Below are positions 30,336-62,491 of a stretch of 64,000 bases of DNA, in pieces. The stretch lies in the IMG/VR virus record IMGVR_UViG_3300029258_002996. One strand, written 5' to 3'. Source of the stretch: a virus. The position numbers and the translations under genes were made by a program. The notes under the pieces were generated by a model, which was not told where the DNA came from, ran no database searches, and saw only the letters and a list, made by a program, of their open reading frames with translations. The first letter of the stretch is position 1, and each line of letters opens with the position of its first letter.

Positions 30336-32792
30336 CTACCTCCGGTTCCTCAACACATCGTTATAGTCAAACGGATACTTACCTCCGAAAAATTCGTAAA
30401 TCTCGTGCTCCTGAATAGTGCTTCCCGTCCACCCACGCACATTGTTCAGGTTGACTGTAGTGTCGCACGAGCTGTTCCACACAATCGAATGCTGCGCACT
30501 CACGAGATTCGCCATGTAGTTTCTCTCGCGCCAATAAATAGGGCGGTTCACCATCAATCCGAACATCGGAACCGTTCCTATTCCTAGATTTCTCGCTTCC
30601 GCATTTGATTTCCTCAACATCAAGGAGGCGAATACTTGAGCGCCCTCCTTGGTGGCCACAGGACACCAAGGCTGGTAGGAAGCGATTCGGAAACCCAAGA
30701 GTTGAGCCAACTCCGGAACAGTCACGTACACATTCCTTCGAAGCCCTTCGTCGTTGATTTTTGCAAAATTTATCAATAAATTAGGCATCGCGCGACCTAC
30801 GGTTTTCAATCCCGAATCGTTCAATGAATTGCTATACCCAGTTGTCTCGTGATGCTCAATGGTAAAGGCGCGAGTGTAGCTGTACTCATCCAAAAGGTCC
30901 TGATAGAAAACATCAAAGCCTTGCTGAGCAACCTCAAGTTTCGTCGGAAGATCCATCATTTCCCTGAAATCACCTTCCGTGTATTTATCGGAATCAGACA
31001 CCCAGAAATCGAAATACTTCGTAGTAAGATCCTCAAGCTCTTTTCGAATGCGGTCATTGTAAACACTGGGGTCCTTAGAATCCATAATGTCGACGCTGAA
31101 GTCGTAGAAAGGCATCTCAAATACTACATCGCCTCTCGGAGTGGCGTAGAACCTAAAGTCGATGGCGTCTGCAAGATCGTAAATGAACGACAACCTGTCC
31201 TTGAACTCGGAATGCTGAAGGGCAGTCCCCGCCGTAGACTGATCCAGGATACCCCTGGATACCTTCGGCCCCAAATTGGCAGGGGCTACGTAGTAGACAT
31301 TTCCGTGACCCACGGGATAACGTTCGATGTCAGTACCAATCTGCGTAATGACATCCTCCAGAGTCCAGCCCTTCTCCAAAGAAGGGATCGCGTCGTATTT
31401 CAGCATCGTGTCCAAATCCTCAACCCGAACACGATGATGCAAGAGATCGTTCAGTTCCCTAATATTCGCTATGGGTATCTTCTCCCCGAGAGCCTCGTCA
31501 ACAGGATTCAGCTCGTCACCGATGAAGAGCGCGCGAACGCCTTGCTCAACGGTCTTCCTTTTGAACGGAATCCCACGAGGAGTTGTGATCAACGGAATCG
31601 AAGAACCTGGAAAACGATCCTGTTTTTCATCCACGAGCCTTTTTTGAAGCTGCTTACGGCGTTCCGCAGGCTGCATCGAGGCAACTTCTTCTTTAGACCG
31701 ACCAAGAGTATTTAAAAGATAGGTATTGATCTCCGAATCGTCCATTGCGCGAATGGTCGCCATCACGGTGTCGTCAAGGATAGGACGAAAATCGTCCAAA
31801 CCGAAAAACAGGATTTCTAAAATTTCATAAGGACTGAATCCAGAAAAAATCTCATTGTAAAAATTCGCCTTCAACTCCCCCACGGGACTGTCTCCGAACG
31901 GACCCTGGAAAGCCGGGTTGTTTCGGAAGATTTTTCGAATCGCAGGATCGAGTTGATCCGTATTAGTCTGCAAAAAAGCGTATCGAACGGATTTGGTGAC
32001 ATCCGTTCCGGTAATTGTGACGGTAGACTCCCGGTTCACGCCTCGATTTTCAGTAAAGGAATCCACAAAACCAGTGAACATCCAATACCAGACGTTCGGA
32101 CTGAACGGATCCCGAAAGACAATGCGAATAGGATCGTTCGGATGGAAAATGCAGTCACCCTCTTGAAATGGGTAAAGATAAATCTGCTTGGACTTTATGT
32201 ATGGCCAGAGAATCTCATCCTTCATCAGGTCGTTAATCGCCCCTTCGCTATCATACAAAACTTGAGGGGCTTTGTTCTGTAGGACGGTGTATTTTATGCC
32301 GTCAGGAACTTGAAGATCTCCGTTATAGTAACCTTCGAAAAAACCACCTGAACTCTTCAAGTTTGAATACACAGAGATAAGGTCTCCAAGATCCTGAAAC
32401 GCACCGGCCCCCTCCGCATCTAGCTGAGAAAGTCTCGACATGAAAGAATCGAAATCGCTGCCGCCCGGATCAATTTCAGTAATCATCTCCACCCAATCTC
32501 GGTACGCTTGAATATTTTCATCAAACCTCCTATCGAGATTTTGCCGAGAAGTTCCTAGAATCAGCATATCGGTGTGGTTCACTATATACTTATCGTTGTA
32601 ATTCGCTAAAGTGATCGAACAAGTGCTCGGAGAGCGATCCTGGCTACCGCCCGACTGATTAACCCGAGCATCAATAACGTCTCCAGAAACCTCCATTCCG
32701 TAGATGAAGACACGGAAAGCTGGAAAAGCCGCTCGATAGATGCCTTCAGCGGCATCTACTCCCGAATATGGATTTTCAAAACCGTCGCCCAT
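30336..32792 (-). CDS. Baseplate hub protein (gp27/gpD-like)
   Basis: FTGFVDSFTE...TITGTDVTK; DFRFYATPRGDVVFEMPFY. Confidence 0.68.
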   Translation of the reverse strand: MGDGFENPYSGVDAAEGIYRAAFPAFRVFIYGMEVSGDVIDARVNQSGGSQDRSPSTCSITLANYNDKYIVNHTDMLILGTSRQNLDRRFDENIQAYRDWVEMITEIDPGGSDFDSFMSRLSQLDAEGAGAFQDLGDLISVYSNLKSSGGFFEGYYNGDLQVPDGIKYTVLQNKAPQVLYDSEGAINDLMKDEILWPYIKSKQIYLYPFQEGDCIFHPNDPIRIVFRDPFSPNVWYWMFTGFVDSFTENRGVNRESTVTITGTDVTKSVRYAFLQTNTDQLDPAIRKIFRNNPAFQGPFGDSPVGELKANFYNEIFSGFSPYEILEILFFGLDDFRPILDDTVMATIRAMDDSEINTYLLNTLGRSKEEVASMQPAERRKQLQKRLVDEKQDRFPGSSIPLITTPRGIPFKRKTVEQGVRALFIGDELNPVDEALGEKIPIANIRELNDLLHHRVRVEDLDTMLKYDAIPSLEKGWTLEDVITQIGTDIERYPVGHGNVYYVAPANLGPKVSRGILDQSTAGTALQHSEFKDRLSFIYDLADAIDFRFYATPRGDVVFEMPFYDFSVDIMDSKDPSVYNDRIRKELEDLTTKYFDFWVSDSDKYTEGDFREMMDLPTKLEVAQQGFDVFYQDLLDEYSYTRAFTIEHHETTGYSNSLNDSGLKTVGRAMPNLLINFAKINDEGLRRNVYVTVPELAQLLGFRIASYQPWCPVATKEGAQVFASLMLRKSNAEARNLGIGTVPMFGLMVNRPIYWRERNYMANLVSAQHSIVWNSSCDTTVNLNNVRGWTGSTIQEHEIYEFFGGKYPFDYNDVLRNRR

Positions 32793-33544
32793 CAGCTCAA
32801 CTCGTTGAAAAACTCACGACCAAGCGTCGTGGAAAGATACCTGTAGATAAAGTCCATCGGCGGATCCGAGCTGGTCGCCACGAAACTGAAAGAATAATTC
32901 TTGTTGAAAGGATTATCCGCGTCATCCGTGAATTCCAAAACCCGGTCAAAATGGCCCGTAAAGTGAATCAAAGCGTTTGCAAAAATCGGGCTAGAGTACA
33001 TCGCGTAGTAGCGAACAGGGCTTCCATTCCGCACATCAATCATCGGTTCTCGTGTAATGGTGTACAAATTCCAAAAGCTCATAAGTTTCGTCACACCGGA
33101 GAGAGACTCGATCTCCAGAGCTTGGTCTTTTGTAACTCCCTGGCTCCACTCCCGGAGCTTCTTCAATTGTTCGGATGCCCAATTACGACGATTCGCGCCC
33201 ATCCGAAGGTTTATGTTCCCGGTCTGTCCTGAAAAATTGATGGTAATTACGTCGTTGTTAGACCCCAATGAGTTGGCCCAGTGAAAATAGATAGCCCCCG
33301 CCTGAGTATCACGTCGTGTAATCCTCTTGTTCTGGGAAAAAGTCACCGATCTCGGATTCACGCGCAGTCTCACCGGGGGGATATTGTTCCGTTTGCGAAT
33401 ATCGGAAGTGAACATAAAAGGTACTCGATATGAGATGTCCTCATACGGATTGAGAATGCGCTCCAGGACGCGCTCCGGACGAGGAATCGGATCAACCTCG
33501 GAGGCGAAAGTTTCTCGCATCCATTCTCCAAATTTACTTGCCAT
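32792..33544 (-). CDS. Tail tube initiator / baseplate protein
   Basis: VNPRSVTFSQNKRI...ITINFSGQTG...FTGHF...NPFNKNYSFSF; position after tape measure. Confidence 0.58.
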   Translation of the reverse strand: MASKFGEWMRETFASEVDPIPRPERVLERILNPYEDISYRVPFMFTSDIRKRNNIPPVRLRVNPRSVTFSQNKRITRRDTQAGAIYFHWANSLGSNNDVITINFSGQTGNINLRMGANRRNWASEQLKKLREWSQGVTKDQALEIESLSGVTKLMSFWNLYTITREPMIDVRNGSPVRYYAMYSSPIFANALIHFTGHFDRVLEFTDDADNPFNKNYSFSFVATSSDPPMDFIYRYLSTTLGREFFNELS

Positions 33545-33550
33545 AGCTAC

Positions 33551-36457
33551 CTACCCAGTTCCTTGATCCTTTCCACCCACCATGTATTGAGCGGCAAATT
33601 GAGATGCACCGCCCTTCGCTTCGTCTTCAGGACGCATGACTACGCGAGGAGCCGCTTGACGCGCCTTATAAATTCTTTGGTACTTTCGATTAAGCTGCTG
33701 CGCATCCTCGGCTTCTTCCCCACGGCGCGAATAAACCCGAAGAACCGCCCCCGGAGTATTGCTCGGCAGATTCATCACGTTCACCATGCGATCTCCCTGG
33801 GCAAACAACGGTCTCGTCGGGTCCATACCAGCTTTTACGCTTTGTTTCGCTACGTAGTTTCGTGCGGCATGATAGAAATGAGTGCCGCCTTGCGTCGGAT
33901 CTTCGACTTCTCCACCGAGCAATCTTCTAGCCATTCGGAGAGATTCTGGAGAGGCTTCATGAGTGGTTGCGTAGGGCCTTTTCTGACCTTGCTTCCCGTA
34001 ACCGGCTCCGCGCGTCAAAATATCGTAAATATCCCCACTCTTGCCCTTCTTCAACTCTTTCTTAACTCGGTTCAACAGAGTCCAGCCAATGACTTCCGCT
34101 TCTTCCCCCCACGCCTTGTGGACGGTTTCCGTCTCCAGCATTCGCGCAAGTGCTTCCACCTCCCGCGCTTGATAATCTTTGTCAAAAATGCCCTTTTCCA
34201 CCTCAAGAGGTCGGTCCTCCGGAGCTTCCGCACCAAACACAAAACCGCATCGAGGACAGTTTCCTACGATTCCGACCGTAATATTCCCCTCTTGATCTAC
34301 ACTACTAACTTCCAAATTGATGCCGCCGCCGACCCAATAATCCGAAGAAAAACCCGGAGATTCTCGACGCTCTTTAGAAACCGGAATCGTGACCTGGGGC
34401 ATGAAGCGAGTTGGCTGAGCTGTCGCCAGATCCACCAAAGGCATCGTAACCGGTCGCACGGTAGGCTGACTCGGTTGCCACATACCTCCAGGCAACGCAA
34501 TCCCTTGTCGTGGAAGTTCCTGCTCCGGGATCCCCCCTCGCGCAACACCTGCAAAAGACCCCGGAGCAGGCGGAGCGCCCCGGTCTCCCTCCCGCACCGG
34601 AGCCGAAGGATCAAATGCCCACGCGCTCTGGACATTTTTAAGAGAGGACCCGAGAATGTCCATCCCCATGCTCTTCGCAGCAGCAGCCATCTGGTTAACG
34701 CCGCGCGACATCTTGTCTCGATGTTCCCCCTTCATTCCATAGAGATTGTTAATCTTGGACATCAGCTCGACGTTTTTGTCGAAGTCTCCACGGAGAATAT
34801 TGCTCAAAAAATCTGGAATAGATTTGAAGAATGCGATCAGCCATGCGAGTGTTTCGACCGCGAGGCTCAAAAGACCCTGACCAAGTTTCGCAATGCCCTT
34901 GTTCCAGATATTCATCATGATCTCGAACTGGCTCGTTTTCTTCTGTTCCAACTGAAACGATTTGGCCAAAACCCCCATGCTCTCTTCGGTCGCCTTCGCC
35001 GCTTCCACCATCTTGCCCTCTTTCGCAAGATTGTAGAGCTTGGCCATCGCCCGAGCACCCTCGTATCCGAACTTGGCCTCCAGGAACTCCCGAGCGTAGG
35101 TTTCATCACCGCCAGTCGCGTCGAGAGCAATCTGGAACAGGGTCTTCGCGACTTCCAGGAACCGATTGGTATCCTTTCGATTCAAAGCCCGCTGGAGAGC
35201 GTCCTTGAGGCTCTGAGCGGCTCGAATCCCCTCCCCATGCCCTAGACGCTCCCCAACCAAGATCGCCCAATCATTGCCCATCTGAGCAATCCCAGCGGCG
35301 AGCTGCTGCAACCCCTCGGCAGCAACACGGCCCGCAAACTGCTTCGGAACCCCCATGTCCTCATAAGCCTTCCCCAAAGTCTTGGCAAGATCCATCACAT
35401 CCCGAATGTTATAACCAAGACCGGCCAGAGACTCCGCAGCCGCCTCCACGTTTCTCACGAAATAAGGCTGTCCGATGCCCTCCCGACCTTCCATGTAGAG
35501 GTCGGTAACAGCTTCCCGGGCCTCGTCCGTAGTCAACGCATACTTGGCCATGTAGTCAACCATTCGTCGCGCGCTCGTACCTCCGGGAAGCTCAAACATA
35601 AGATCCAAGGCGTGAGAAACGGTTTGAGTCGTGCTCTCGACCCCTTTCAAGGTGATCCCTACTCGTTGCTCGATTCGTTCGATGGCGACGCCGCCGTCAA
35701 CGAATGCTTTCGTAACTCCCTGAGTTTCTGATTTATGGATCCCATAATACTGTTGAAGATGCTCTTGCAGACCGGAAAGATTCCGGGTAGCCGCGCGAGT
35801 AGCAGCGTTCAACCCGCCATCATACGCCGCGACGAGAATGTTCTGCATCTCGCCCGCTTCGGCACGTACCCGATCTTTGTCGAGAAACCCAGCCTTCATC
35901 CAGTTGACGATTCCTGAAAGTACGCCGCCCGGCAACGGAATCTTCAGACTGCCAAGCATCCCCTTGATGTTGTTCCAAAAAGAGGAAAGCTCGGTATCCA
36001 TGATGGTCAGCGGGGCGCGCGCCAGTCCCGTCAATTCTCGCTTCAACCAACTCTTCTTTTCTTTAGATTTATCTTCGTCGGATTTAATTACCCCAGCTTC
36101 CTGAGCCATCTGAAGAAGATCGACAGCATCTCCTGAGAGTTTTCCAAAGTTTTCGTTGGCCGCGTCCACGGTGGAATCGAGCTTGTCAAAAGATTTTTCC
36201 ATGTTCTTGGACATGGAGCTGTATTGCCCCGCTACATTGGCCACATATTGATCGCTCAAGTTTACCAATCGGCTCGCTTTTTTGAACTCCTCACTCCCCA
36301 CCAAAACGCCCACCGCAGAACTGAAATGTCCGATAGAGCGGAAAGTTTCATCAAAAAGCTGAGAGTTGGTTTTTGAAAGATCCTCGACCGCGACTCCGAG
36401 ATCGGTAAACCGCTGCTTGGCAGCATCGAGCTGAGTTATGTCGACAAAGTCAGCCAT
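33551..36457 (-). CDS. Tape-measure-like protein 3 with C-terminal SleB/Hydrolase_2-like cell-wall hydrolase
   Basis: Helical core paralogous to the two upstream genes; EVEALARMLETE...IGWTLLNRV...DPTQGGTHFY. Confidence 0.72.
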   Translation of the reverse strand: MADFVDITQLDAAKQRFTDLGVAVEDLSKTNSQLFDETFRSIGHFSSAVGVLVGSEEFKKASRLVNLSDQYVANVAGQYSSMSKNMEKSFDKLDSTVDAANENFGKLSGDAVDLLQMAQEAGVIKSDEDKSKEKKSWLKRELTGLARAPLTIMDTELSSFWNNIKGMLGSLKIPLPGGVLSGIVNWMKAGFLDKDRVRAEAGEMQNILVAAYDGGLNAATRAATRNLSGLQEHLQQYYGIHKSETQGVTKAFVDGGVAIERIEQRVGITLKGVESTTQTVSHALDLMFELPGGTSARRMVDYMAKYALTTDEAREAVTDLYMEGREGIGQPYFVRNVEAAAESLAGLGYNIRDVMDLAKTLGKAYEDMGVPKQFAGRVAAEGLQQLAAGIAQMGNDWAILVGERLGHGEGIRAAQSLKDALQRALNRKDTNRFLEVAKTLFQIALDATGGDETYAREFLEAKFGYEGARAMAKLYNLAKEGKMVEAAKATEESMGVLAKSFQLEQKKTSQFEIMMNIWNKGIAKLGQGLLSLAVETLAWLIAFFKSIPDFLSNILRGDFDKNVELMSKINNLYGMKGEHRDKMSRGVNQMAAAAKSMGMDILGSSLKNVQSAWAFDPSAPVREGDRGAPPAPGSFAGVARGGIPEQELPRQGIALPGGMWQPSQPTVRPVTMPLVDLATAQPTRFMPQVTIPVSKERRESPGFSSDYWVGGGINLEVSSVDQEGNITVGIVGNCPRCGFVFGAEAPEDRPLEVEKGIFDKDYQAREVEALARMLETETVHKAWGEEAEVIGWTLLNRVKKELKKGKSGDIYDILTRGAGYGKQGQKRPYATTHEASPESLRMARRLLGGEVEDPTQGGTHFYHAARNYVAKQSVKAGMDPTRPLFAQGDRMVNVMNLPSNTPGAVLRVYSRRGEEAEDAQQLNRKYQRIYKARQAAPRVVMRPEDEAKGGASQFAAQYMVGGKDQGTG

Positions 36458-36460
36458 TTC

Positions 36461-39004
36461 TTAACCCGGGGGTAAAACCTTCTTTCCCGAAACCGCCAAA
36501 GAAGCCGGAATAAGACGCACCCCGGCATCTCCGGACAAACCCGCCGTAGTATCATCCGAATAGTCGCGCAGAGTGAACTTACCCTCAGTATCCTGCTCTG
36601 CTCTTCTCTTCGCTTGCTCCTTTATATGATCGCGAGTCCGGTCTCGGATGATTTCCCCGTGCGTCCGTCCTTCTCGTTCCACATTGAGAATGCCGGTCTC
36701 GTTCAAAACAAAACGTGTCATCGGAGGAGCGAGGACTTCGAGACCGGGAACGACTTCTCCCATATTCTTCGCAAAACCCAACGCGCTCTCTACCGATTGA
36801 GCAGCAGTAGGATCGTAAGTGCCTGAGATGCGCTCTAGCTCACGACCACCGGGACTCCACCGACGACCGGTGTAGGGATCGATGGCAATTTGATTCATCC
36901 AAACCAAATCCCCGCTTTCCGTTTTCTTTTTCATCCAATCGGGCGCACGTTGAGGAGCGGCTTCACCTCGCATGTATTGTTCGGCAAGCTCTTGAGCCCT
37001 TTCCGATTGCTGCAACTCTTCGGGAGACATCGACGCCAACTTATCCAGATCTTGTTGTCTCGGAGGTTCGTAGTACTTTTGCCTACCAAAAAATAAATTC
37101 AAGATAGTCCCCACGGTGCCAGGAAACATTGCCGAGAGTTTCTGGGACGAATTGTACAAAGAATCCTCAATCTTCTGCCAGTTGGTCCCCATATCACGCC
37201 AAATAGAAGAAACCTTTTCCCACAGACGATCCATCACCAGATCAACCTCACCTGACTTGAACCCGTAGTAAAGAGCTGGGAAAGTTTTTACACCTACGAT
37301 GAGAAGAGCAACAATATTGGTAAGGATCCCAAAAAGACCCTCCGAAACACCAGAAATCATATCGATCAATTCACGACGGGTAACATCCAAGGTCGAAACC
37401 GCCTCACGCTCACGACCAAACGCATCTTTCAGGTTCCGAACCTGGCTTTTATCCAGATCGGCCAACTTACCAACTTCACCCAGTTCCTCCGTCAAATCGT
37501 GAATCAACGCCGCGTCGCCAACCGAAACACTTAGAATATCGCTGACCGCCATGATTCTCTGGGCACGGCTTCCTGCCAACTGACGCATCACCACGTTAGA
37601 AAAGGCTTTCAAAAGCTTTTCGAGAAACTCGTCACTACCCCCACCCTCTTTCAAACGACTTAGACCGTCCTTGAACTGCTGCACGAGATCGAGTCCGCGC
37701 GCCTGCTCATCCCCCGTAATGTCGCGCATCAGCTCGATTTTCAATTTATCTCCGATATTTTGAAATGCCTCCAACAAATTTACAGCCACGCCCACTGCCT
37801 GTCGTCCTGCGAATTTTCGATTGAGACCCATCTCCTCGTAATGATCGGTGATTCGGTTAACCATGACCGCCACGAATTCAACATTGCCGCCGAGCTTTCG
37901 AAGCGCATCCTCACTATCCAAGACGGCTCCAATGAATTTTTCAGTACCGATTCTACTTCGTTGCGCGGCCCCTGCGATTTTCATGTAGGATTTAAGTGCT
38001 TCGTGAGCGCCCATCGCGTAGTTGTGCATAAACTCCACGGCACGCTGCATTGAAGTTCCGTCCGCGACGTGAAAGTGCTTATCGAGCGCCAAGGAAGCTT
38101 TCACTACGTTGTCCCCGACACCGCCAAGACCTTTGTCAAATTCCTTCAAAAAATCGTCCGCCTCTACTCCGGCATCGACGAGCAGCTTAGCAGTCGCCTG
38201 TACATCTTTCCGCGCGAGTCGATACCGCCACTGAGCGTGTTCTGCGAAGCTGCTCAGGTTACGAACCGCTCGTTGAGTTTTCCCACTCATCAAAGAATCG
38301 AAAGAAGATTGAAAAACGTTCGCCATCTCCCCTAGCTCAGCGCGCTTACGATCTTTCTCCCGGTATCCAATCGAAAGAGCCCCGAACAGCCCGCTGACAA
38401 AACCTCCACCGAGCCGGGAAAGTTTATCGGGGAGCTTCTTTAACAAATCTCCGATTCCTTCGTAAGCTTTCAAAACAGCAGCTTCAATTTTACTGGTGGC
38501 TTCCCGAGATTCCTTCGCGGCTTCCTTTCGAACGCCAAACACACCTTCGGAAGCTTTCATAGTTTCCTTGAAAGTCCCTTTGACCTCTTCTTTTGCGCTC
38601 TTCATGTCACGCTCGGCCATGCCAATCGCAGACTCTACCGATTGATGTTGCGGATCCTGCGGCGACGGTTTTTTCTTGAAAACTTTATCGAGCTTCACCT
38701 CTTTCATTGTCGCAAGGTTTTCTACGATCCGCCTCGCCTCCCGTTGTTGAGCCTCCAGATAAAAAGCGATGCGCCCCTGGTCGGCGGCTCCGAGTGGGGC
38801 GGGCTCCGGGAGACTTGCCAAAGCGGATGATATCGGCAAATCCATCCCCAACGTTAAATCGTAAAACGAAGACACATCCTGAGCGGTGCCGACCGCGATG
38901 TCCTGAACGGTCGCTCCAAATTCGGTATAGGAACGTTGAAGATTCGCAACCTGACTTTGCAAACCAGTAAGATCAAGTTCTACCTTTGGTATTTCCTCAG
39001 CCAT
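36461..39004 (-). CDS. Tape-measure-like protein 2
   Basis: Helical, 847 aa; GEMANVF, FAEHAQWRY, HYEEMGL. Confidence 0.65.
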   Translation of the reverse strand: MAEEIPKVELDLTGLQSQVANLQRSYTEFGATVQDIAVGTAQDVSSFYDLTLGMDLPISSALASLPEPAPLGAADQGRIAFYLEAQQREARRIVENLATMKEVKLDKVFKKKPSPQDPQHQSVESAIGMAERDMKSAKEEVKGTFKETMKASEGVFGVRKEAAKESREATSKIEAAVLKAYEGIGDLLKKLPDKLSRLGGGFVSGLFGALSIGYREKDRKRAELGEMANVFQSSFDSLMSGKTQRAVRNLSSFAEHAQWRYRLARKDVQATAKLLVDAGVEADDFLKEFDKGLGGVGDNVVKASLALDKHFHVADGTSMQRAVEFMHNYAMGAHEALKSYMKIAGAAQRSRIGTEKFIGAVLDSEDALRKLGGNVEFVAVMVNRITDHYEEMGLNRKFAGRQAVGVAVNLLEAFQNIGDKLKIELMRDITGDEQARGLDLVQQFKDGLSRLKEGGGSDEFLEKLLKAFSNVVMRQLAGSRAQRIMAVSDILSVSVGDAALIHDLTEELGEVGKLADLDKSQVRNLKDAFGREREAVSTLDVTRRELIDMISGVSEGLFGILTNIVALLIVGVKTFPALYYGFKSGEVDLVMDRLWEKVSSIWRDMGTNWQKIEDSLYNSSQKLSAMFPGTVGTILNLFFGRQKYYEPPRQQDLDKLASMSPEELQQSERAQELAEQYMRGEAAPQRAPDWMKKKTESGDLVWMNQIAIDPYTGRRWSPGGRELERISGTYDPTAAQSVESALGFAKNMGEVVPGLEVLAPPMTRFVLNETGILNVEREGRTHGEIIRDRTRDHIKEQAKRRAEQDTEGKFTLRDYSDDTTAGLSGDAGVRLIPASLAVSGKKVLPPG

Positions 39005-41322
39005 TAATCTGACGGTGGAAGTGTCCGCTCCTTGTGTTTGATATCCGCCTGGGCGATTGCTTCAGAAGATATGACCACTTCGGCACGCCGAGGGTTTGCC
39101 ATGATTTCGCGCTCTTTGGCGTTGGCTAACGGTTCTGGCTTGGCCCGCTCTTGGTCACGCACTGCCTTGACTTCGGAACCGCGAGGCATTCCAGGATGCT
39201 TCGGAGGCGGTTCGCTTTCTTCCGTAGCCGAGTCCGGAGGAGCTACCGCAGGGGGTTCCGGGGTCGCAGACTCGGGGATCCGTTTACCTACGGTCCCCGC
39301 AGCTCCGGTCGCAAGCCCTTTCGCCGCTCTCCAGGCACCTTTGAACAGTTCAATTGGGCTTCCGGACGTACCGCGACCCACAACTCTCGGAGTCGTCGGC
39401 TGATCTTCCCTACGAGGTCCTTCAAGGTTTCCACTCGCAGCTCGTTTCAATATATCCAGCGGACCGCCTAGAGCCTCTGAGACTGATCCCGGAACTTCTT
39501 CCAGCCCTTCCATTGCCTGGACGACTCCCTCCCCCAAAGTTCCGACGAGCATTTTCATCTCGTCACCGATCTTCGTCAGCTCCCGATTCCCCTCTTCCCC
39601 TCCCCTTAAAGTAGCGCTGATAAGACGAGGCAACGAAGTGATGCCTACCGTCAGGATAGCCAAAATTGAAGTCAAAACCTTCAAAAGACCGTTCCCAACC
39701 CCAGCCAAAGCGTTGATAAGCTTCCTTTCCGTCTGTTCCAACGTGGAAACCGCTTTTCTATTGATCTCGAACGCCTGCTGAACTGCGCGCTTCTGTTCCG
39801 GAGCAAGCTTTTGAAAATCGTTGTACTTCTTGAGTTCCTCCCGCGCATCCAGCAACGTAGCTGCTGTCTGGGTCTGCATGCCTTGGTTTTCCAAAAACAA
39901 GATAGCTTCGGAACGACCACGACCCTCCAGAGCCCACGCGGTAAGGTGCATGGTCGCTTCGACAAGGAAACCTTCGTCCTCACCGCGAGCAGCTCGGGCA
40001 GCCCCCTCCTCGTACTTTACGAATGCTGCATGCGCCTCCATGCCAGGGAACATCCGACGCGCTAGCTCAAGCTTGGAACTACTGCCAAGGTTGGCTACGG
40101 CGCCCGTGTAGTTATCTACAAACCGAGCTGCCATTTCCCCAGCATGCTGCGGATGGAGTCCCATTCGGCGATAGTGCCGCTCGATATTCACCATAATGTT
40201 CGCAACATCACGAACGTCGATACCGTATTGCTGCATCGCCGAAGCACCGGACATCACCGCGTTGATGAACTTGTCGATTCCGGCCCCGCTGCGCTGCGCA
40301 GCCATCCCGAAACCGATGTAATCCTTAGTCGCCTTCTCCAACGTGTCACCGTAGTCAGAAACCAAGGTAATCACGTTTGACATCGCAGTACCCTGAGCCC
40401 TGTGGAGATGGGCATCCAGCGCCATTGTGGCAACTACGGCATTCTGACCAACGTACCCCAAGTCTTCGCTAATTCTTTTTTCGAAATCCTCGCGTCGATA
40501 TCCAGCTTGCGCCATCTGACTGACAACGCCCTGCGTTTCTTCCTTGCTGATCCCGTAAAACCACTGAGCGTGTTCTTGAAAAGCACTGAACCATCCAATG
40601 GTTTTTTCGAGAGACCCCGGGCCTGAAAGTCGCTCACCGGTAGCTTCCAGTACGTTGGCCATTTCCCCGCGTTGCGCGGTGAGGCGCGCGTCCTCTTTCC
40701 TACCCAAAATCATCCAGTTGATGAGCGTGCCGATGACTCCCCCACCGACCCCTGGAATGTTACTCAAGAGACTTCCAAGAGACTGTTTCAGCCCCTTCAA
40801 TTCACTTTCCGCGTACTGTAAGAGTTGCGCAACACCTTTTTTGAACACTTCCAGCTCGTCTTTCAACGTGCGCTTCATCTCTTTGTGCTGCTGCTCGACT
40901 TCGGACATCGTGGCACGCGCCACATCCGCCATCTCCAGGACTGCCTTGATTTCTTTCGAGACGCGCTGAAGCTCCGGAGGAGTCCCGACGCCTGCTTCGC
41001 CGCCAACCTGGATCCCAGACAAGCGACTCATGTTGGCGGCTACGGTTTCGCTCTGCCTAGAAAGATTTTCAAGATTTCGGACCGTGGAGCCCATGCCTCG
41101 CTGAATCGATTGAGCCGATTGATCCAGTTGCGGAATCATGGTTTGCAGAGAGGCTGAAACTCCTTCTGTGGATTGTCTGAGAGCTTGCGTATCGGTGGTC
41201 GCAGCGTTCACTACCTCACGCACTGCCATGCCGAAATCGGTATAGTCCCGCGTCAGCTCGTTGATCTGATTATCGAACTCAGAAAAATCAAACGAAAGCA
41301 GATAGTCTTTGGCAACCGCCAT
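39004..41322 (-). CDS. Tape-measure-like protein 1
   Basis: Helical, 772 aa, directly after the chaperone frameshift product; GEMANVL, FQEHAQWFY, HYRRMGL. Confidence 0.68.
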   Translation of the reverse strand: MAVAKDYLLSFDFSEFDNQINELTRDYTDFGMAVREVVNAATTDTQALRQSTEGVSASLQTMIPQLDQSAQSIQRGMGSTVRNLENLSRQSETVAANMSRLSGIQVGGEAGVGTPPELQRVSKEIKAVLEMADVARATMSEVEQQHKEMKRTLKDELEVFKKGVAQLLQYAESELKGLKQSLGSLLSNIPGVGGGVIGTLINWMILGRKEDARLTAQRGEMANVLEATGERLSGPGSLEKTIGWFSAFQEHAQWFYGISKEETQGVVSQMAQAGYRREDFEKRISEDLGYVGQNAVVATMALDAHLHRAQGTAMSNVITLVSDYGDTLEKATKDYIGFGMAAQRSGAGIDKFINAVMSGASAMQQYGIDVRDVANIMVNIERHYRRMGLHPQHAGEMAARFVDNYTGAVANLGSSSKLELARRMFPGMEAHAAFVKYEEGAARAARGEDEGFLVEATMHLTAWALEGRGRSEAILFLENQGMQTQTAATLLDAREELKKYNDFQKLAPEQKRAVQQAFEINRKAVSTLEQTERKLINALAGVGNGLLKVLTSILAILTVGITSLPRLISATLRGGEEGNRELTKIGDEMKMLVGTLGEGVVQAMEGLEEVPGSVSEALGGPLDILKRAASGNLEGPRREDQPTTPRVVGRGTSGSPIELFKGAWRAAKGLATGAAGTVGKRIPESATPEPPAVAPPDSATEESEPPPKHPGMPRGSEVKAVRDQERAKPEPLANAKEREIMANPRRAEVVISSEAIAQADIKHKERTLPPSD

Positions 41323-41323
41323 T

Positions 41324-42148
41324 TCAGTCCGTTTCGATTACAACGCGGCTTCGCTTGCGCTTCGCCGGAATTTCATCCAAGGAACCTTCGGATTCGATCC
41401 TCACGGGGATCTCCTCGGTTTCTCCTACATCTTTCTTTCGTTTCGCCTCCTCGCGAAGCTCTCTTCTAGCTTGTCCGATGGTTCGGGCTCTTCTCGGCAT
41501 CAGATCAATCTGCTCGGCATCGAGATCTTCCTTCGACACCACGAGACTCTCCAGCATCTTCTGCATCATGGGATCCCCCCAAGAAAGAGATTCCTGAAGC
41601 TCGTCAGGCTCGTTATCAAATTGGATATCACCTTCAGCCATGAAGGCTTCTAACTCTTCAGGAGTCAACTCCGGTTCCGATTCTCGGTCGGTTACAAATT
41701 CGGAGCCTTCGACTTCGAGATCCTGACGGACTTGTTCTTGGGTATGGTACTCCCCTTGCTTTTTGAGGATTCCAGCCACTACGTCCTCGCGACCCATTCC
41801 CAGCATCAACGGGAGATACTCACCTTCCTGCGGCAAGCGCAGTAGTCCCGTATGAGGGTCCTCGACCGGCATCAAGTTGACCCCGAGAACGGAAATAACC
41901 TCGTCTCGAACCGCATCCATGATGGCCTTCATCTCGTCGTATCTGCGCTCCTCGTTCCTCTGAATCGCAGCGTCTTCGAACGCCCACTGCGTTTCATTCA
42001 TGTTCCTCAACCGAGGATCCCCTATCGGGATGTTTCGCTGCGTCAAGATCTGCGCCTTGATCTGCAAATGCGAAACTATTTTTCTCCAGAAGGGGAAAGT
42101 TCGGTCCCAGAGGGGTCGATACCCTCGTCCGAACTCTCCCCGGAGGAT
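41324..42148 (-). CDS. C-terminal (gpT-like) part of tail assembly chaperone, reached by -1 frameshift
   Basis: Frame is -1 relative to 42076..42612 and reads KKILRGEFGRGY from the A7 run. Confidence 0.8.
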   Translation of the reverse strand: MLRGEFGRGYRPLWDRTFPFWRKIVSHLQIKAQILTQRNIPIGDPRLRNMNETQWAFEDAAIQRNEERRYDEMKAIMDAVRDEVISVLGVNLMPVEDPHTGLLRLPQEGEYLPLMLGMGREDVVAGILKKQGEYHTQEQVRQDLEVEGSEFVTDRESEPELTPEELEAFMAEGDIQFDNEPDELQESLSWGDPMMQKMLESLVVSKEDLDAEQIDLMPRRARTIGQARRELREEAKRKKDVGETEEIPVRIESEGSLDEIPAKRKRSRVVIETD

Positions 42149-42612
42149 TTTTTTAACGCATCCTGAGCGTTCGACCTGCGGTCCTCCATCCTCTGCCACT
42201 CATCCCACAAGTCCGAAATGACTTCTGGAAAACGGTCCGCGAGGAACTTCATCAGGTGTTCCGCCGTGAAGTACTTCGCAGAGTACGGCCCCTTTCCCTC
42301 CACGATCTCAAGCGCCCTCCGGCTCTCCTCGGTTGCGTCCCATTCCTCTCGAAAGAATTCGAAAACGGGAGTGCCGTTGATCTGTCGAATTCCGATTGCC
42401 AACGTAGGGAGCCGCCACGAGCTAACGGCGCTCAGCTTCGAGCCGAGATTGATGTAGCCGTTTCTCCAGTTCGACTCCTCTTCGTTGAGCAGCCGCATCT
42501 TGAACTCGAAGCCTTTCACGTTGCAGGTGTGCTCGATGGTCTCGCCGTCCAGTTCCTTGGCAAGATCCATCAGGACTTGTTTCGGATTTACGTTTTTCTG
42601 TTCGGTAGACAT
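42076..42612 (-). CDS. Tail assembly chaperone (gpG-like)
   Basis: Between tube and tape measure; carries slippery site. Confidence 0.8.
   Translation of the reverse strand: MSTEQKNVNPKQVLMDLAKELDGETIEHTCNVKGFEFKMRLLNEEESNWRNGYINLGSKLSAVSSWRLPTLAIGIRQINGTPVFEFFREEWDATEESRRALEIVEGKGPYSAKYFTAEHLMKFLADRFPEVISDLWDEWQRMEDRRSNAQDALKKSSGESSDEGIDPSGTELSPSGEK
42148..42156 (-). other. Programmed -1 ribosomal frameshift site
   Basis: TTA AAA AAA (A-AAA-AAA heptamer) in frame in the chaperone gene, within the ORF overlap. Confidence 0.8.
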
Positions 42613-54110: not shown

Positions 54111-55385
54111 CTACTTCGAGCCCTTGGCGCACGCACGCGCGTTCGGGATCACGAATCCGATCATCTCGACAAAGGCCCAGCCTTTCACCGTCTCCTGCTG
54201 CGCGTACTTGTTGTACGGCTCGGAGAACAGCTCGATCCTGACGCCCATCTCGCCCATGTATTCGGCTCCGGTCGTCGCGTAGAAGGTCCCTGCCGGGATC
54301 ACTTCCTCGACACCGGTACCGGCTGCGGTGAGGATCTGCGCGTTCAAGATATTGCCGATGTAACCGGCCAGGATCAGCTCACGCTCGGTGACCGGATCCA
54401 CCGCAGCCGACATCGTCTTCACGACATCGGACAGCTCGGCACGAGAGATCAGGAAGTTCTCGACCATCAGACGATGGCGCTCGACCTGATACCGGACATC
54501 CTCGAAAGCGTTCAGGCCAAGAGAACCGAACGTGGTCACGGTATTCTCGGTCTGGGCAGCCTCGTCGATGATGGCGATACCGGCCTTGTCCTCCTGAAGC
54601 TCGATCTCCTGCCGCGCGGTGTCCTGAGCACGATCCAAGACATCGAAGTTCATCTGATAGATGTCCATGATGTCGATGGACGGGAAGCTCGTCACCTTCC
54701 ACTCGGGCGGGGTGACCCACTTCGTCTTGATCCTCGACTCGGGGGTCTGCCCGTCTTGGCCAACCACCCAGGCGACCGAACGGATATCCAGCGGCACGCG
54801 GAACAGCTCGGCCTGGGCCAGCTTGCGTACACGATAGATCTTCCGGGAGAAGCCTTCGTAGTCGAGAATCGCCTTGATCGGGAGCGCCAGCTCCTGACCG
54901 ACGATGTGGAAGCCCTGACCCGAGGGATCCTGGAGAGCCGCCGCCAAGATGTCCCGACGCGCTTCCTTCGAGATGCCCGACTCCGTGTCCGGACGGTAGA
55001 AGGAGAGCGCGTTGGCGTTCTGCTTCACCGTCTCGTTCAGGAGCTGATGCACCTGCGTCATCGCGTCGCGACGGTCGATGGCGTTGACCTCGCCTCTCGA
55101 ATCAAACATGCGGCGATCCGAACGTCCGCGAGTCGCGTGGCGGCTCGACGGATGATCGTAACGCTGCGGGTTGAAGGTACCGTCGCCCTGGAACAGGGTT
55201 TCGTCCTTCTTCGATCCGAACCGACTCCTCGGACGTGCAGCGAGTCTGCGCCGCTCGTCCTTCGGAGCTTCTTTCCGAGCCTGTCGGGGAGCGGGACGCT
55301 TACCCCGGGTAGGCTCACCTCGCCGAGCTGCCTTGGTGGGCACGGGACGGCGCTTCTTGGAAATCCTTTTGTACGGATTATTCAT
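54111..55385 (-). CDS. Major capsid protein (HK97 fold) with basic N-terminal extension
   Basis: ELALPIKAILDYEGFSRK, FDVLDRAQDTARQEIELQED, GWAFVEMIGFVIPN; follows protease/scaffold; strongly biased codon use. Confidence 0.88.
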   Translation of the reverse strand: MNNPYKRISKKRRPVPTKAARRGEPTRGKRPAPRQARKEAPKDERRRLAARPRSRFGSKKDETLFQGDGTFNPQRYDHPSSRHATRGRSDRRMFDSRGEVNAIDRRDAMTQVHQLLNETVKQNANALSFYRPDTESGISKEARRDILAAALQDPSGQGFHIVGQELALPIKAILDYEGFSRKIYRVRKLAQAELFRVPLDIRSVAWVVGQDGQTPESRIKTKWVTPPEWKVTSFPSIDIMDIYQMNFDVLDRAQDTARQEIELQEDKAGIAIIDEAAQTENTVTTFGSLGLNAFEDVRYQVERHRLMVENFLISRAELSDVVKTMSAAVDPVTERELILAGYIGNILNAQILTAAGTGVEEVIPAGTFYATTGAEYMGEMGVRIELFSEPYNKYAQQETVKGWAFVEMIGFVIPNARACAKGSK

Positions 55386-60652: not shown

Positions 60653-62491
60653 CTAACCAGCCGTGGTCGGCAAACCGCCCCCCGAAGGGGCTTCGATGGT
60701 ATCGTTCAACGGCCCCGTAGATTCTGCACTTCCGGGAGGCGCACTCTCGTCTGTCATGTCCTTGCCCGCAGCAGCAGGGGGCTTCCCAGCAGCTCCCGGA
60801 GGTTTGGCTCCGGCGCCAGGGGTTCCTGGAGGTGTTGGCTTGGCCGGTTGGTTCTGCTGAATGTACTGCTGAGCCAGCTCTTTCCCGAGCGTCTTTTCGA
60901 TGTGCTCGCGATCCTCCTTGAACTCGTGAAGACTCTTTTCCAGCTCCTCCTTGTAATCGAGGCCCACGGCACCGGCAGCGGTCGACTTAGATACCGGAAT
61001 CTGGAAAGCGTCCTTGAGCGCCTTGTACGCCTGGAGAACATCGGTGTCGACGCTGGGATCCAGCTTGTTCTTCCACTTGACCGTGGGCATGATGAGGAGA
61101 CGTTCCTCCTCGATTTCCTGAGCGGTGCGCTTGATTCGATACCTGTGGTTCACCTCGGACGGTGTCGAAGTCGTCCACTCGTTGATCTCCGAAATCGGCC
61201 TGAAGAACTTGGGGTACAGCCAAACCGTCTCCAGGTACTGACGAAGCGAAAGGAGGCGTCGGAGAAAGACTTGAAGACCGCTCTTCGCACTGGCGAAGGT
61301 CTGCTCTCCCGACATAAAAGATTTGGACAAACCCAGACCGAGCAGCTTCACGCGCTCAATTACATCGTGGTACTTATTAATATTTACTTCTCGGTCTTGA
61401 GCGCCCCAAGCCTCGAAGTTTATCCCGTAATGATAGATTAACCAACTGGCCGGGTCCACCTCGATTCGGTTGAGCATTTCTAATAATTTTGCTTCAGAAC
61501 CCGGAGCCGGGATCCACCCACTGGCGGGATCCCCGAGTTTTAAAACTTTTACGGGGGCCGCGCTACGTCTAAATATGGCAATCGTCGAATTGTATACCGC
61601 GTCCTCCACCATGAATATTCTCCAGAGGCGGCTCGCGATGGAGGTTCCCCTGATCTCGTAGGGGTGGAGTTTCCGGGCAATGAACGAACAGTTCAACGAA
61701 GAGAGTCGAATCGGCTGCCGAGCCAGAATTTTACTCACGAACTCCTGGGGCAGATGCCTCTTCAGCTCTTGAGATTCTCGGGATCCATCCGACAAGAGCC
61801 GACGTAGATTGTCGTCAGGGACAAAGTTGAGGATCGGCTCCATGTCGATGATCGGGCTGTCGAGCACCTCGATATAGTCGGGGTTGTGGAACCCGATGTA
61901 CGTCCAGATACCCAGCTCGTCGTCGAAGAAATTGTGGGGAATCGCCTCTCCCACGGATAGGTACTCTCGCACGATGTACTTCAACCGATCAATCAGGTTC
62001 ACCTTCTCGCACATGTACTCCAAAGTTCTCTTGATCTCGACAGACTCCTTGGCATCTCCGAGCACGATGTCGTAATCCGAGACGAGCATATCCGCGTACA
62101 TGTCGATAGCGGTACCGAACAGAGGGTCGAGCCGGTGAAAAAGACGCCAGTCCTCGTTAGCTTCGATTCGGCTCCGTGGGTACTGAACTCGGTCTGGGGA
62201 TTCCACCTGCGGCAGATAGGGACGCTGCATGTGGTAGAACGTGCTTCCACCGCCTCCTCCGCCGCCGTAAGGGGTTACCCCGTAGGGCATACCCCCCGAG
62301 AATACCCCCGCCCCTCCAGAAGCGTGTCGACGGCCTCCTACGGACAATGTGGCCCCAGCGGGTAGAACGCTCGCCGCGATCTCCCGCTGCTGGTAGCTGG
62401 GATCCCCGAGATTCACAAGACGGGGTTTGAAGCTCCCCATTGATCTGCGCCGTCTAGGCACGAAACTATCCATCGGTTTTTTCCTTCGCAT
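60653..62491 (-). CDS. Portal protein
   Basis: DPLFGTAIDMY, REYLSVGEAIP, RGTSIASR, LKLGD, Pro-rich tail; first gene of head module. Confidence 0.8.
   Translation of the reverse strand: MRRKKPMDSFVPRRRRSMGSFKPRLVNLGDPSYQQREIAASVLPAGATLSVGGRRHASGGAGVFSGGMPYGVTPYGGGGGGGSTFYHMQRPYLPQVESPDRVQYPRSRIEANEDWRLFHRLDPLFGTAIDMYADMLVSDYDIVLGDAKESVEIKRTLEYMCEKVNLIDRLKYIVREYLSVGEAIPHNFFDDELGIWTYIGFHNPDYIEVLDSPIIDMEPILNFVPDDNLRRLLSDGSRESQELKRHLPQEFVSKILARQPIRLSSLNCSFIARKLHPYEIRGTSIASRLWRIFMVEDAVYNSTIAIFRRSAAPVKVLKLGDPASGWIPAPGSEAKLLEMLNRIEVDPASWLIYHYGINFEAWGAQDREVNINKYHDVIERVKLLGLGLSKSFMSGEQTFASAKSGLQVFLRRLLSLRQYLETVWLYPKFFRPISEINEWTTSTPSEVNHRYRIKRTAQEIEEERLLIMPTVKWKNKLDPSVDTDVLQAYKALKDAFQIPVSKSTAAGAVGLDYKEELEKSLHEFKEDREHIEKTLGKELAQQYIQQNQPAKPTPPGTPGAGAKPPGAAGKPPAAAGKDMTDESAPPGSAESTGPLNDTIEAPSGGGLPTTAG

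Follow-up and report, generated by a model that had tools for sequence, protein, structure and literature searches.

The window studied here, 64,000 nucleotides of the viral record IMGVR_UViG_3300029258_002996 from IMG/VR, stems from a large, uncultured phage with a contractile tail and carries three diverged genes in tandem (A, B and C) that encode tape-measure proteins (TMPs). The three genes are paralogs that are retained together in a fixed order in related phages, and only the last of them bears a peptidoglycan hydrolase. We put at about even the chance that A, B and C occupy a tail lumen jointly, as a heteromeric tape measure. The TMP is the textbook case of a molecular ruler encoded by a single gene. 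The number of TMP copies in a tail (three or six) and their state in the lumen are debated, because the protein is poorly resolved in nearly all tail structures.

Sequence relationships of the three paralogs

The initial annotation, made from the letters of the window, had described three tape-measure-like genes of 772, 847 and 968 amino acids (aa). Open reading frames (ORFs) of these lengths were found at exactly the coordinates it gave, on the minus strand (Table 1). All the collinear motifs that it listed are present in the translations, in the order A/B/C: YTDFG/YTEFG/FTDLG; QRGEMANVL/ELGEMANVF/EAGEMQNIL; FQEHAQWFYGI/FAEHAQWRYRL/LQEHLQQYYGI; ALDAH/ALDKH/ALDLM; and HYRRMGL..HAG/HYEEMGL..FAG/AYEDMGV..FAG. 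Pairwise BLASTP alignments were significant for all three pairs, with 29% identity over 576 columns between A and B (E 2e-65), 25% identity between A and C (E 9e-38) and 24% identity between B and C (E 1e-34). With sequence similarity so far above chance, A, B and C are identified as true paralogs.

The three proteins are collinear from residue ~10 to ~570-600. The regions beyond this point do not align, which bears out the differing C-termini of the initial annotation. Its single shared hydrophobic segment had to be revised, as each of the three proteins was found to have two segments at matching positions, namely a weak, Gly-rich one at residues ~189-207 and the strong helix listed in Table 1. 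GEMxN and the hydrophobic helix lie 326-338 aa apart in every motif-matching copy (8 phages). Orthologs of A and B show little conservation in the C-terminal tails, and the C-terminal region of ~265 aa that is peculiar to B (residues ~583-847; 36461-37258, minus strand) had no family match. This region of B has the motif D-P-x-T-G-x-x-W-S-P in common with its ortholog in locus L004.

The start codon of B overlaps the stop codon of A (TAATG). At the gene junctions stop and start codons overlap or abut (TAATG, TGATG, ATGA), with some gaps of 3-7 nt, and this arrangement suggests that translation of the genes is coupled.

Identity as tape-measure proteins

We class A, B and C as TMPs on the grounds of gene position, protein architecture and distant homology, but not as members of PF10145 proper. 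The genes lie between a -1 frameshifted chaperone pair and the tube-initiator-like, probable hub and baseplate genes. The proteins are long and nearly all alpha-helical with hydrophobic segments, as indicated by the structure model of A and by the equivalent hydrophobic positions in A, B and C. Furthermore, homology to recognised TMPs is detectable with Foldseek in BFVD, with phrog_167 and in the ESM Atlas.

The model of A was calculated with AlphaFold2 (AF2) on 93 family sequences. It consists of helices only: two N-terminal helices (residues 13-102 and 117-186) of moderate confidence are followed by a core (~196-630) with a predicted local distance difference test score (pLDDT) >90 and a disordered tail (635-748). 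A Foldseek search of this model against the predicted viral structures of BFVD gave 89 matches at E<=1e-3 (best E 3e-8), and the named matches among those listed were all TMPs or minor tail proteins, except for one 'Uncharacterized protein'. The neighbours in the ESM Atlas are TMP/PhageMin_Tail clusters (score 0.96). The tape-measure family phrog_167 matched A with E 6e-6 and B with E 4e-6. C had no TMP match in PHROGs and is tied to the TMPs via its paralogy with A and B. Family members match PhageMin_Tail or TMP_3 weakly, and the best of them reached E 2e-4 with PF10145.

Otherwise, the searches of A, B and C against Pfam, NCBIfam and PHROGs yielded only sub-threshold or compositional matches (Baculo_PEP_C). 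When A, B and C were searched against PDB profiles, matches such as that to coronavirus S2 HR1 were rejected as coiled-coil noise. Foldseek found nothing significant for the A model in the PDB, and hence there is no solved structure for the core of A. No match was obtained with A and C in a tblastn search of 50,697 phage records, nor in a scan of viral contigs with the initial family alignment. Elsewhere in the 128 kb of the record PF10145 and phrog_167 had no match, and no other TMP candidate was seen.

Distribution and phylogeny of the array

A profile of the family retrieved 438 representatives (clusters at 50% identity, E<=1e-3), whose lengths cluster at 750-850 and 900-1000 aa. The triplet described in the initial annotation turned out to be conserved in relatives. 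Eight distinct phages, with contigs of 188.5, 192, 205.6 and 212 kb among them, show the order A-B-C. In another 3 phages a second type of triplet was found, in the order o1, tube-initiator-like gene, o2, o3, where a glucosaminidase or CHAP hydrolase is confined to the last copy. Five phages have an AB-like gene directly followed by C, and Virus Rctr197k has one family copy. These doublets and the singleton rule out a universal triplet. Four-copy arrays were not seen among the linked loci.

In the second type of triplet (L043:6849-14640, also L041 and L042), the gene between the first and second TMP paralogs encodes a tube-initiator-like protein of 271 aa with 35% identity to the product of 32792-33544 in the window.

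All copies were intact in every locus examined, while orthologs have diverged down to ~30-45% identity. The array is old and under selection, and its paralogs have been kept together in a fixed order over deep divergence.

In the phylogenetic tree A, B and C form separate clades with support values of 98, 100 and 99, respectively. A and B group as sisters within the AB-like genes of the doublet phages, which implies that one gene of an older pair was later duplicated to give A and B. The genes o2 and o3 are also sisters (support 96), and Rctr197k falls outside. With A/B and o2/o3 both being sister pairs, a third copy arose at least twice. The free tree places the second triplet outside the old AB/C split (an 'other' clade, support 85), a tentative placement, as an approximately unbiased (AU) test of the grouping AB+o1 gave dlnL 23.2 and p 0.053. 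The lineage of the window probably went from one gene, as in Rctr197k, to two genes (AB-like and C) and then to three by duplication of AB, and a second phage lineage would have reached three copies via another duplication.

Some copies are found on contigs of 3-5 kb binned into metagenome-assembled genomes of Thermotogae and Dehalococcoidaceae (L025, L026). Most likely these are mis-binned phage fragments, unfit for host assignment.

A wall hydrolase and a conserved CxxC motif on the last copy

The initial annotation had placed a SleB-like hydrolase on the third copy only, and both the predicted fold and the orthologs support this assignment. The AF2 model of residues 660-968 of C has pLDDT >85 over the hydrolase domain. 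VIA-align matched this domain to the SleB catalytic domain 4fet_A with Z 10.4 (root-mean-square deviation 2.6 A over 116/122 residues) and to 4f55_A with Z 10.0, while the next match, an unrelated one, had Z 3.8. The structural matches cover 116-118 of the 122-128 residues of 4fet and 4f55. The Pfam search of C itself (P0003) gave no match to PF07486 (Hydrolase_2). Two of its orthologs, P0094 (30.9 bits) and P0154 (30.3 bits), exceed the PF07486 cut-off of 27 bits and align to the hydrolase domain of P0003 with 45-48% identity (E 1e-25). The domain is common to at least 30 orthologs. A phmmer search of the hydrolase region against the PDB found no match, and Foldseek of the C-terminal model against the PDB listed only weak SleB rows.

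C resembles the SleB/CwlJ enzymes (Hydrolase_2; 4fet, 4f55) in the fold of its last domain and probably in a conserved Glu at the expected place. It differs from them in sequence (~10% identity), in the fusion of the domain to a TMP, and in that the domain is preceded by a beta-hairpin with a CxxC motif instead of a peptidoglycan-binding domain. The conserved residue, Glu777 (in ALARMLETE), lies in the first helix of the domain and is kept in 35 of the 50 C-clade proteins. We take Glu777 to be the candidate catalytic residue, an equivalence based on the SleB motif and not on a residue-level alignment.

The type of wall enzyme varies within the C clade: among the 50 sequences scanned we found Hydrolase_2 in 8, Peptidase_M15 in 12, Peptidase_M23 in 4 and CHAP in 1. 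This variation points to the last paralog as the carrier of exchangeable wall hydrolases. The two Cys of the CxxC motif are kept in 45/50 C-clade proteins, whichever enzyme follows, and are invariant in alignment A7. Since two Cys per chain cannot bind a metal alone, the motif may be a disulfide or an inter-chain site.

The frameshifted chaperone upstream

In phage lambda, the G/GT frameshift arrangement precedes the tape-measure gene. Judged from its sequence, the pair of overlapping ORFs that precedes A, B and C fits a chaperone of this type, with a -1 shift at a canonical heptamer. In the 0 frame the slippery site reads TTA AAA AAA TCC, and the -1 frame runs into the ORF at 41324-42199. A heptamer of the X_XXY_YYZ pattern occurs in the upstream gene region of 15 related loci, as A_AAA_AAA, A_AAA_AAC, G_GGA_AAC or G_GGA_AAA. 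Such swapping of slippery forms between relatives is what a conserved programmed frameshift predicts. The chaperone ORFs had no match in Pfam, NCBIfam or PHROGs.

In the same 15 loci the heptamer is followed by a TCCTC.GGGG-like or CTCATCAGGGG-like sequence; in the window it is followed by TCCTCCGGGG. The bases 3' of the heptamer (~42138-42147, minus strand) read TCCTC[ACT]GGGG, or CTCATCAGGGG in the doublet phages, and the same conserved bases are found in relatives at L004:9175, L011:9176, L032:4498 and others. They are thus conserved at the DNA level, though the proteins are only 30-45% identical, and may represent a frameshift-stimulating element or a constraint imposed by two reading frames.

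A possible heteromeric tape measure and rival readings

If A, B and C form a heteromeric tape measure, coupled translation would produce them in near-equal amounts, one chaperone would bind all three, and they would lie alongside one another, in register, within a single tail lumen. Upon contraction the TMP bundle would exit first. The hydrolase of C would then open the cell wall, the hydrophobic helices of A, B and C would insert into the inner membrane to form a DNA conduit, and the divergent tails of A and B would provide other functions. Co-retention in a fixed order, overlap of stop and start codons, constant spacing of the landmarks and the trimeric TMPs of solved tails agree with this reading. 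TMPs are trimeric at the baseplate end in the solved tails of T5 (bioRxiv 10.1101/2022.09.20.507954), 80alpha, JBD30 and phi92, and the TMP of A-1(L) is a six-fold bundle with three ordered ends. Furthermore, the TMP of T5 is expelled and forms a channel (bioRxiv 10.1101/2022.09.20.507954).

Several points weigh against a heteromeric tape measure. With five doublet lineages and one single-gene relative, three copies are not obligatory, and the two-paralog lineages contradict 'three genes for a trimer' as a strict rule. A heterotrimer would break the three-fold symmetry of the contact with the hub. The N-terminal arms before GEMxN differ consistently, by 15-40 residues (219-235 residues in A, 210-225 in B and 193-209 in C), the extreme C-termini of the three proteins are unlike each other, and the conserved CxxC of C would be easier to explain if several C chains met on the axis. 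The constant landmark spacing may reflect a conserved folded domain (pLDDT >90) and not a need for register. Also, the match of PF10145 (PhageMin_Tail) to residues ~256-378 of A, with 14.4 bits (E 1e-3), lies below the gathering cut-off of 33.2 bits. Finally, co-assembly of the three proteins is something that we infer.

Instead, one paralog (e.g. C, touching the hub) might be the ruler and the other two TMP-derived cargo proteins, either as riders in the lumen or as ejected membrane-channel or pilot proteins that keep the TMP fold and chaperone binding. This would agree with the hydrophobic helix that every copy keeps and that acts after ejection, with the entirely different C-terminal modules, and with relatives that vary between 1, 2 and 3 copies without other changes in the tail module. 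However, cargo would be free to shorten, whereas the whole collinear region of ~570 residues, including the N-terminal motif and the long helices, is kept in all three proteins and the landmark spacing is constant in all copies; we regard a single ruler with two cargo proteins as unlikely. More unlikely still is a serial ruler, in which homo-oligomers of each paralog are stacked end to end, so that duplication lengthens the tail where other phages have a longer gene (cf. the 2893-aa TMP of phage G). The summed length of 2587 aa is near the 2893 aa of phage G gp183, which belongs to a related tail module, C as the hydrolase bearer and last gene would sit at the baseplate end, and the CxxC would suit a C homotrimer. 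Yet gp183 contains one weak copy of the family core and is no fusion of three modules, the motif at the N-terminus and the hydrophobic helix shared by all three proteins are left unexplained, and the low conservation of the C-terminal tails in A and B is not what a head-to-tail joint would lead one to expect. To our knowledge a TMP concatenated non-covalently is without precedent, and literature searches found none.

The initial annotation had also considered alternative tails, in which each paralog would homotrimerise and each virion would contain one kind, giving a mixed population with differing penetration. The differing C-terminal modules could indeed fit different envelopes. However, a hydrolase on one copy only, in both triplet lineages, would leave two thirds of the virions without hydrolase, the gene junctions suggest coupled translation and give no hint of switching, and joint use is the better fit to 8 + 3 phages that strictly retain the copies in a fixed order. 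In view of the tight coupling and the single hydrolase-bearing copy, alternative tails are improbable and were judged the least likely of the functional readings. That the copies are neutral or decaying duplicates without functional consequence is scarcely credible: apart from the duplication itself nothing speaks for it, and it is contradicted by conservation, i.e. by intact copies in every examined locus despite ~30-45% ortholog identity and by the separate, supported clades.

The heteromeric tape measure with division of labour proposed in the initial annotation thus stands in part. Labour is divided, since only the last copy bears a peptidoglycan hydrolase, also in relatives (M15, M23, CHAP, glucosaminidase); the hetero-oligomer stays at the even chance given above. 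In a stronger form of this reading, which is possible but rather doubtful, the tape measure of the clade would be an obligate hetero-oligomer, 1:1:1 in the triplet phages and derived from 2:1 in the doublets, with two lineages that duplicated different members independently. If so, the stoichiometry of a trimeric TMP would be visible in gene copy number, and this would be the first tape measure with separate subunit roles, with wall hydrolysis assigned to one of them and other functions to the remaining two.

Comparison with known systems

The initial annotation took one TMP per phage as the norm, and this holds for the nearest named relatives, Virus Rctr197k (one homolog of 669 aa) and Bacillus phage G (one TMP of 2893 aa). 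Rctr197k (KX853510) is the nearest GenBank relative, with a matching gene order and identities of 61% for the major capsid protein, 42% for the sheath, 42% for the tube and 37% for baseplate J. The ORF in its TMP slot, Rctr197k_071, is distantly homologous to the core of the family (hhalign probability 98.6%, E 1e-15). Unlike the window, Rctr197k has a single copy, the sole profile match in its 197 kb, with no apparent hydrolase domain. Rctr197k_071 (L022:12063-14072; KX853510.1 78062-80071) is an intact ORF, for which the record has no more than a misc_feature, 'similar to hypothetical protein'.

Phage G (gp178-gp189) resembles the window in having a sheath, two tube-like proteins, a frameshifted chaperone and a TMP with muralytic domains, and its sheath is homologous (E 7e-10). 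It differs in its one giant TMP, gp183, annotated as 'tail protein with lysin activity'. The family core had one weak match in gp183 (probability 56%), and this rules out gp183 as a fusion of three modules.

The single TMPs of PF10145/TIGR01760 (e.g. of lactococcal TP901-1, PMC5099701) share with the window the locus after the chaperone, the all-helical structure, a match to the core (Foldseek; weakly PF10145) and the hydrophobic segments. Those phages have one gene, whereas the window has three tandem paralogs with 24-29% identity that fall below the curated thresholds. The T5 protein pb2 is a TMP trimer with a predicted transmembrane domain and a C-terminal zinc carboxypeptidase motif (bioRxiv 10.1101/2022.09.20.507954). 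Like paralog C, it combines a ruler region and a hydrophobic helix with a C-terminal muralytic domain. However, pb2 is a siphovirus homotrimer encoded by one gene, whereas here the enzyme is on one of three paralogs and is of the SleB type instead of a peptidase.

More than one TMP-like gene has been noted in Staphylococcus jumbo phages. Passages of two reports mention, in annotation only and with no analysis of paralogy, conservation or function, 'two potential tape measure proteins' in MarsHill, Madawaska and Machias (bioRxiv 10.1101/2020.12.14.422802) and two adjacent TMP-like genes of ~2000 aa (00259/00260) in vB_SauM-UFV_DC4 (PMC10638138). According to these passages, the jumbo phages resemble the window in having adjacent long, helical TMP-like genes with transmembrane segments and cell-wall hydrolase domains, but belong to an unrelated group, have proteins of ~2000 aa and have two copies. 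Literature searches on heterotrimeric, paralogous, second or multiple tape-measure proteins found no study. The multi-copy array described here is a well-documented case of a barely described variant.

A large environmental phage clade with one, two or three diverged copies in an otherwise matching tail module (compared gene by gene with Rctr197k) is a natural experiment. It could reveal the number of chains in the lumen, whether they are in register, and how the protein is divided into parts that measure length and parts that act after ejection, in wall hydrolysis or as a membrane channel. The array also matters for annotation, as A, B and C receive no Pfam name and the homolog in the nearest GenBank record is not called as a coding sequence.

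Source record and surrounding tail genes

The IMG/VR record around the window comprises 127,888 bp. CheckV estimates its completeness at 71%, from which a genome of ~180 kb follows. All genes are on the minus strand, in the order portal, protease, major capsid protein, sheath, tube, tube paralog, -1 frameshifted chaperone, TMP-A, TMP-B, TMP-C, tube-initiator-like gene, 818-aa gene and, further on, Baseplate_J. The coordinates of these and other features are given in Table 1.

Table 1. Features of the tape-measure array and its surroundings (positions in the window).
Feature	Position	Strand	Remarks
TMP paralog A, P0001, 772 aa	39004..41322	-	Two long N-terminal helices, helical core, hydrophobic helix, Pro/Glu/Ala-rich disordered tail
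Strong hydrophobic helix of A, residues 538-572	39607..39711	-	Kyte-Doolittle 19-mer maximum 2.03; within long helix 527-573 of the model
TMP paralog B, P0002, 847 aa	36461..39004	-	C-terminal region (~265 aa) specific to B
Strong hydrophobic helix of B, residues 549-582	37259..37360	-	Kyte-Doolittle maximum 2.06
TMP paralog C, P0003, 968 aa	33551..36457	-	Shared core, linker, beta-hairpin with CxxC, SleB-type hydrolase
Hydrophobic helix of C, residues 525-548	34814..34885	-	Kyte-Doolittle maximum 1.72
CPRC (CxxC) motif of C, residues 734-737	34247..34258	-	Part of GNCPRCG; closes a beta-hairpin that immediately precedes the hydrolase
SleB/CwlJ-type (Hydrolase_2) peptidoglycan hydrolase domain of C, residues ~752-910	33728..34204	-	From predicted structure and orthologs
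Tail assembly chaperone, short (G-like) product, 178 aa	42076..42612	-	Immediately precedes the TMPs; following ORF overlaps it in the -1 frame
-1 programmed frameshift site A_AAA_AAA	42148..42154	-	Read from the sequence
Chaperone frameshift extension (T-like part)	41324..42153	-	-1 frame open from the slippery site to the stop at 41324; 34% identity to the Rctr197k_070 region
Portal	60653-62491	-	
Major capsid protein	54111-55385	-	
Tail sheath, 828 aa	43746..46232	-	tblastn: 26% identity (E 7e-10) to phage G gp178 'tail sheath'; 42% to Rctr197k_065
Tail tube, 150 aa	43268..43720	-	phrog_985 virion structural protein, E 2e-5; 42% identity to Rctr197k_067
Second, paralogous tube-like gene, 201 aa	42658..43263	-	phrog_985, E 2e-7; cross-matches both Rctr197k tube genes
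Tube-initiator-like gene, 250 aa	32792..33544	-	PF23980 Phage_tail_tube_init, E 0.003, sub-threshold; Rctr197k_072 38%; 271-aa gene of L043 35%
Probable baseplate hub, 818 aa	30336..32792	-	By position only; syntenic with Rctr197k_073 (26% over 848 columns, E 5e-59)
Baseplate J-like wedge, 477 aa	26600..28033	-	PF04865, 22.7 bits (cut-off 21.1)

The sheath gene had no match in Pfam or PHROGs, and the probable hub gene had none in Pfam, NCBIfam or PHROGs. A weak match to PF23980 was also flagged in locus L004, and the tail tube ortholog in locus L007 matches PF26461 (Phi812_tail_tube) weakly. The two tandem tube-like paralogs of 150 and 201 aa, which both match phrog_985, have counterparts in Rctr197k, likewise as a pair, and two 'virion structural proteins' stand at this place in phage G. 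As the gene pair is shared with Rctr197k and matches the position in phage G, the tube duplication appears to be older than the TMP duplications.

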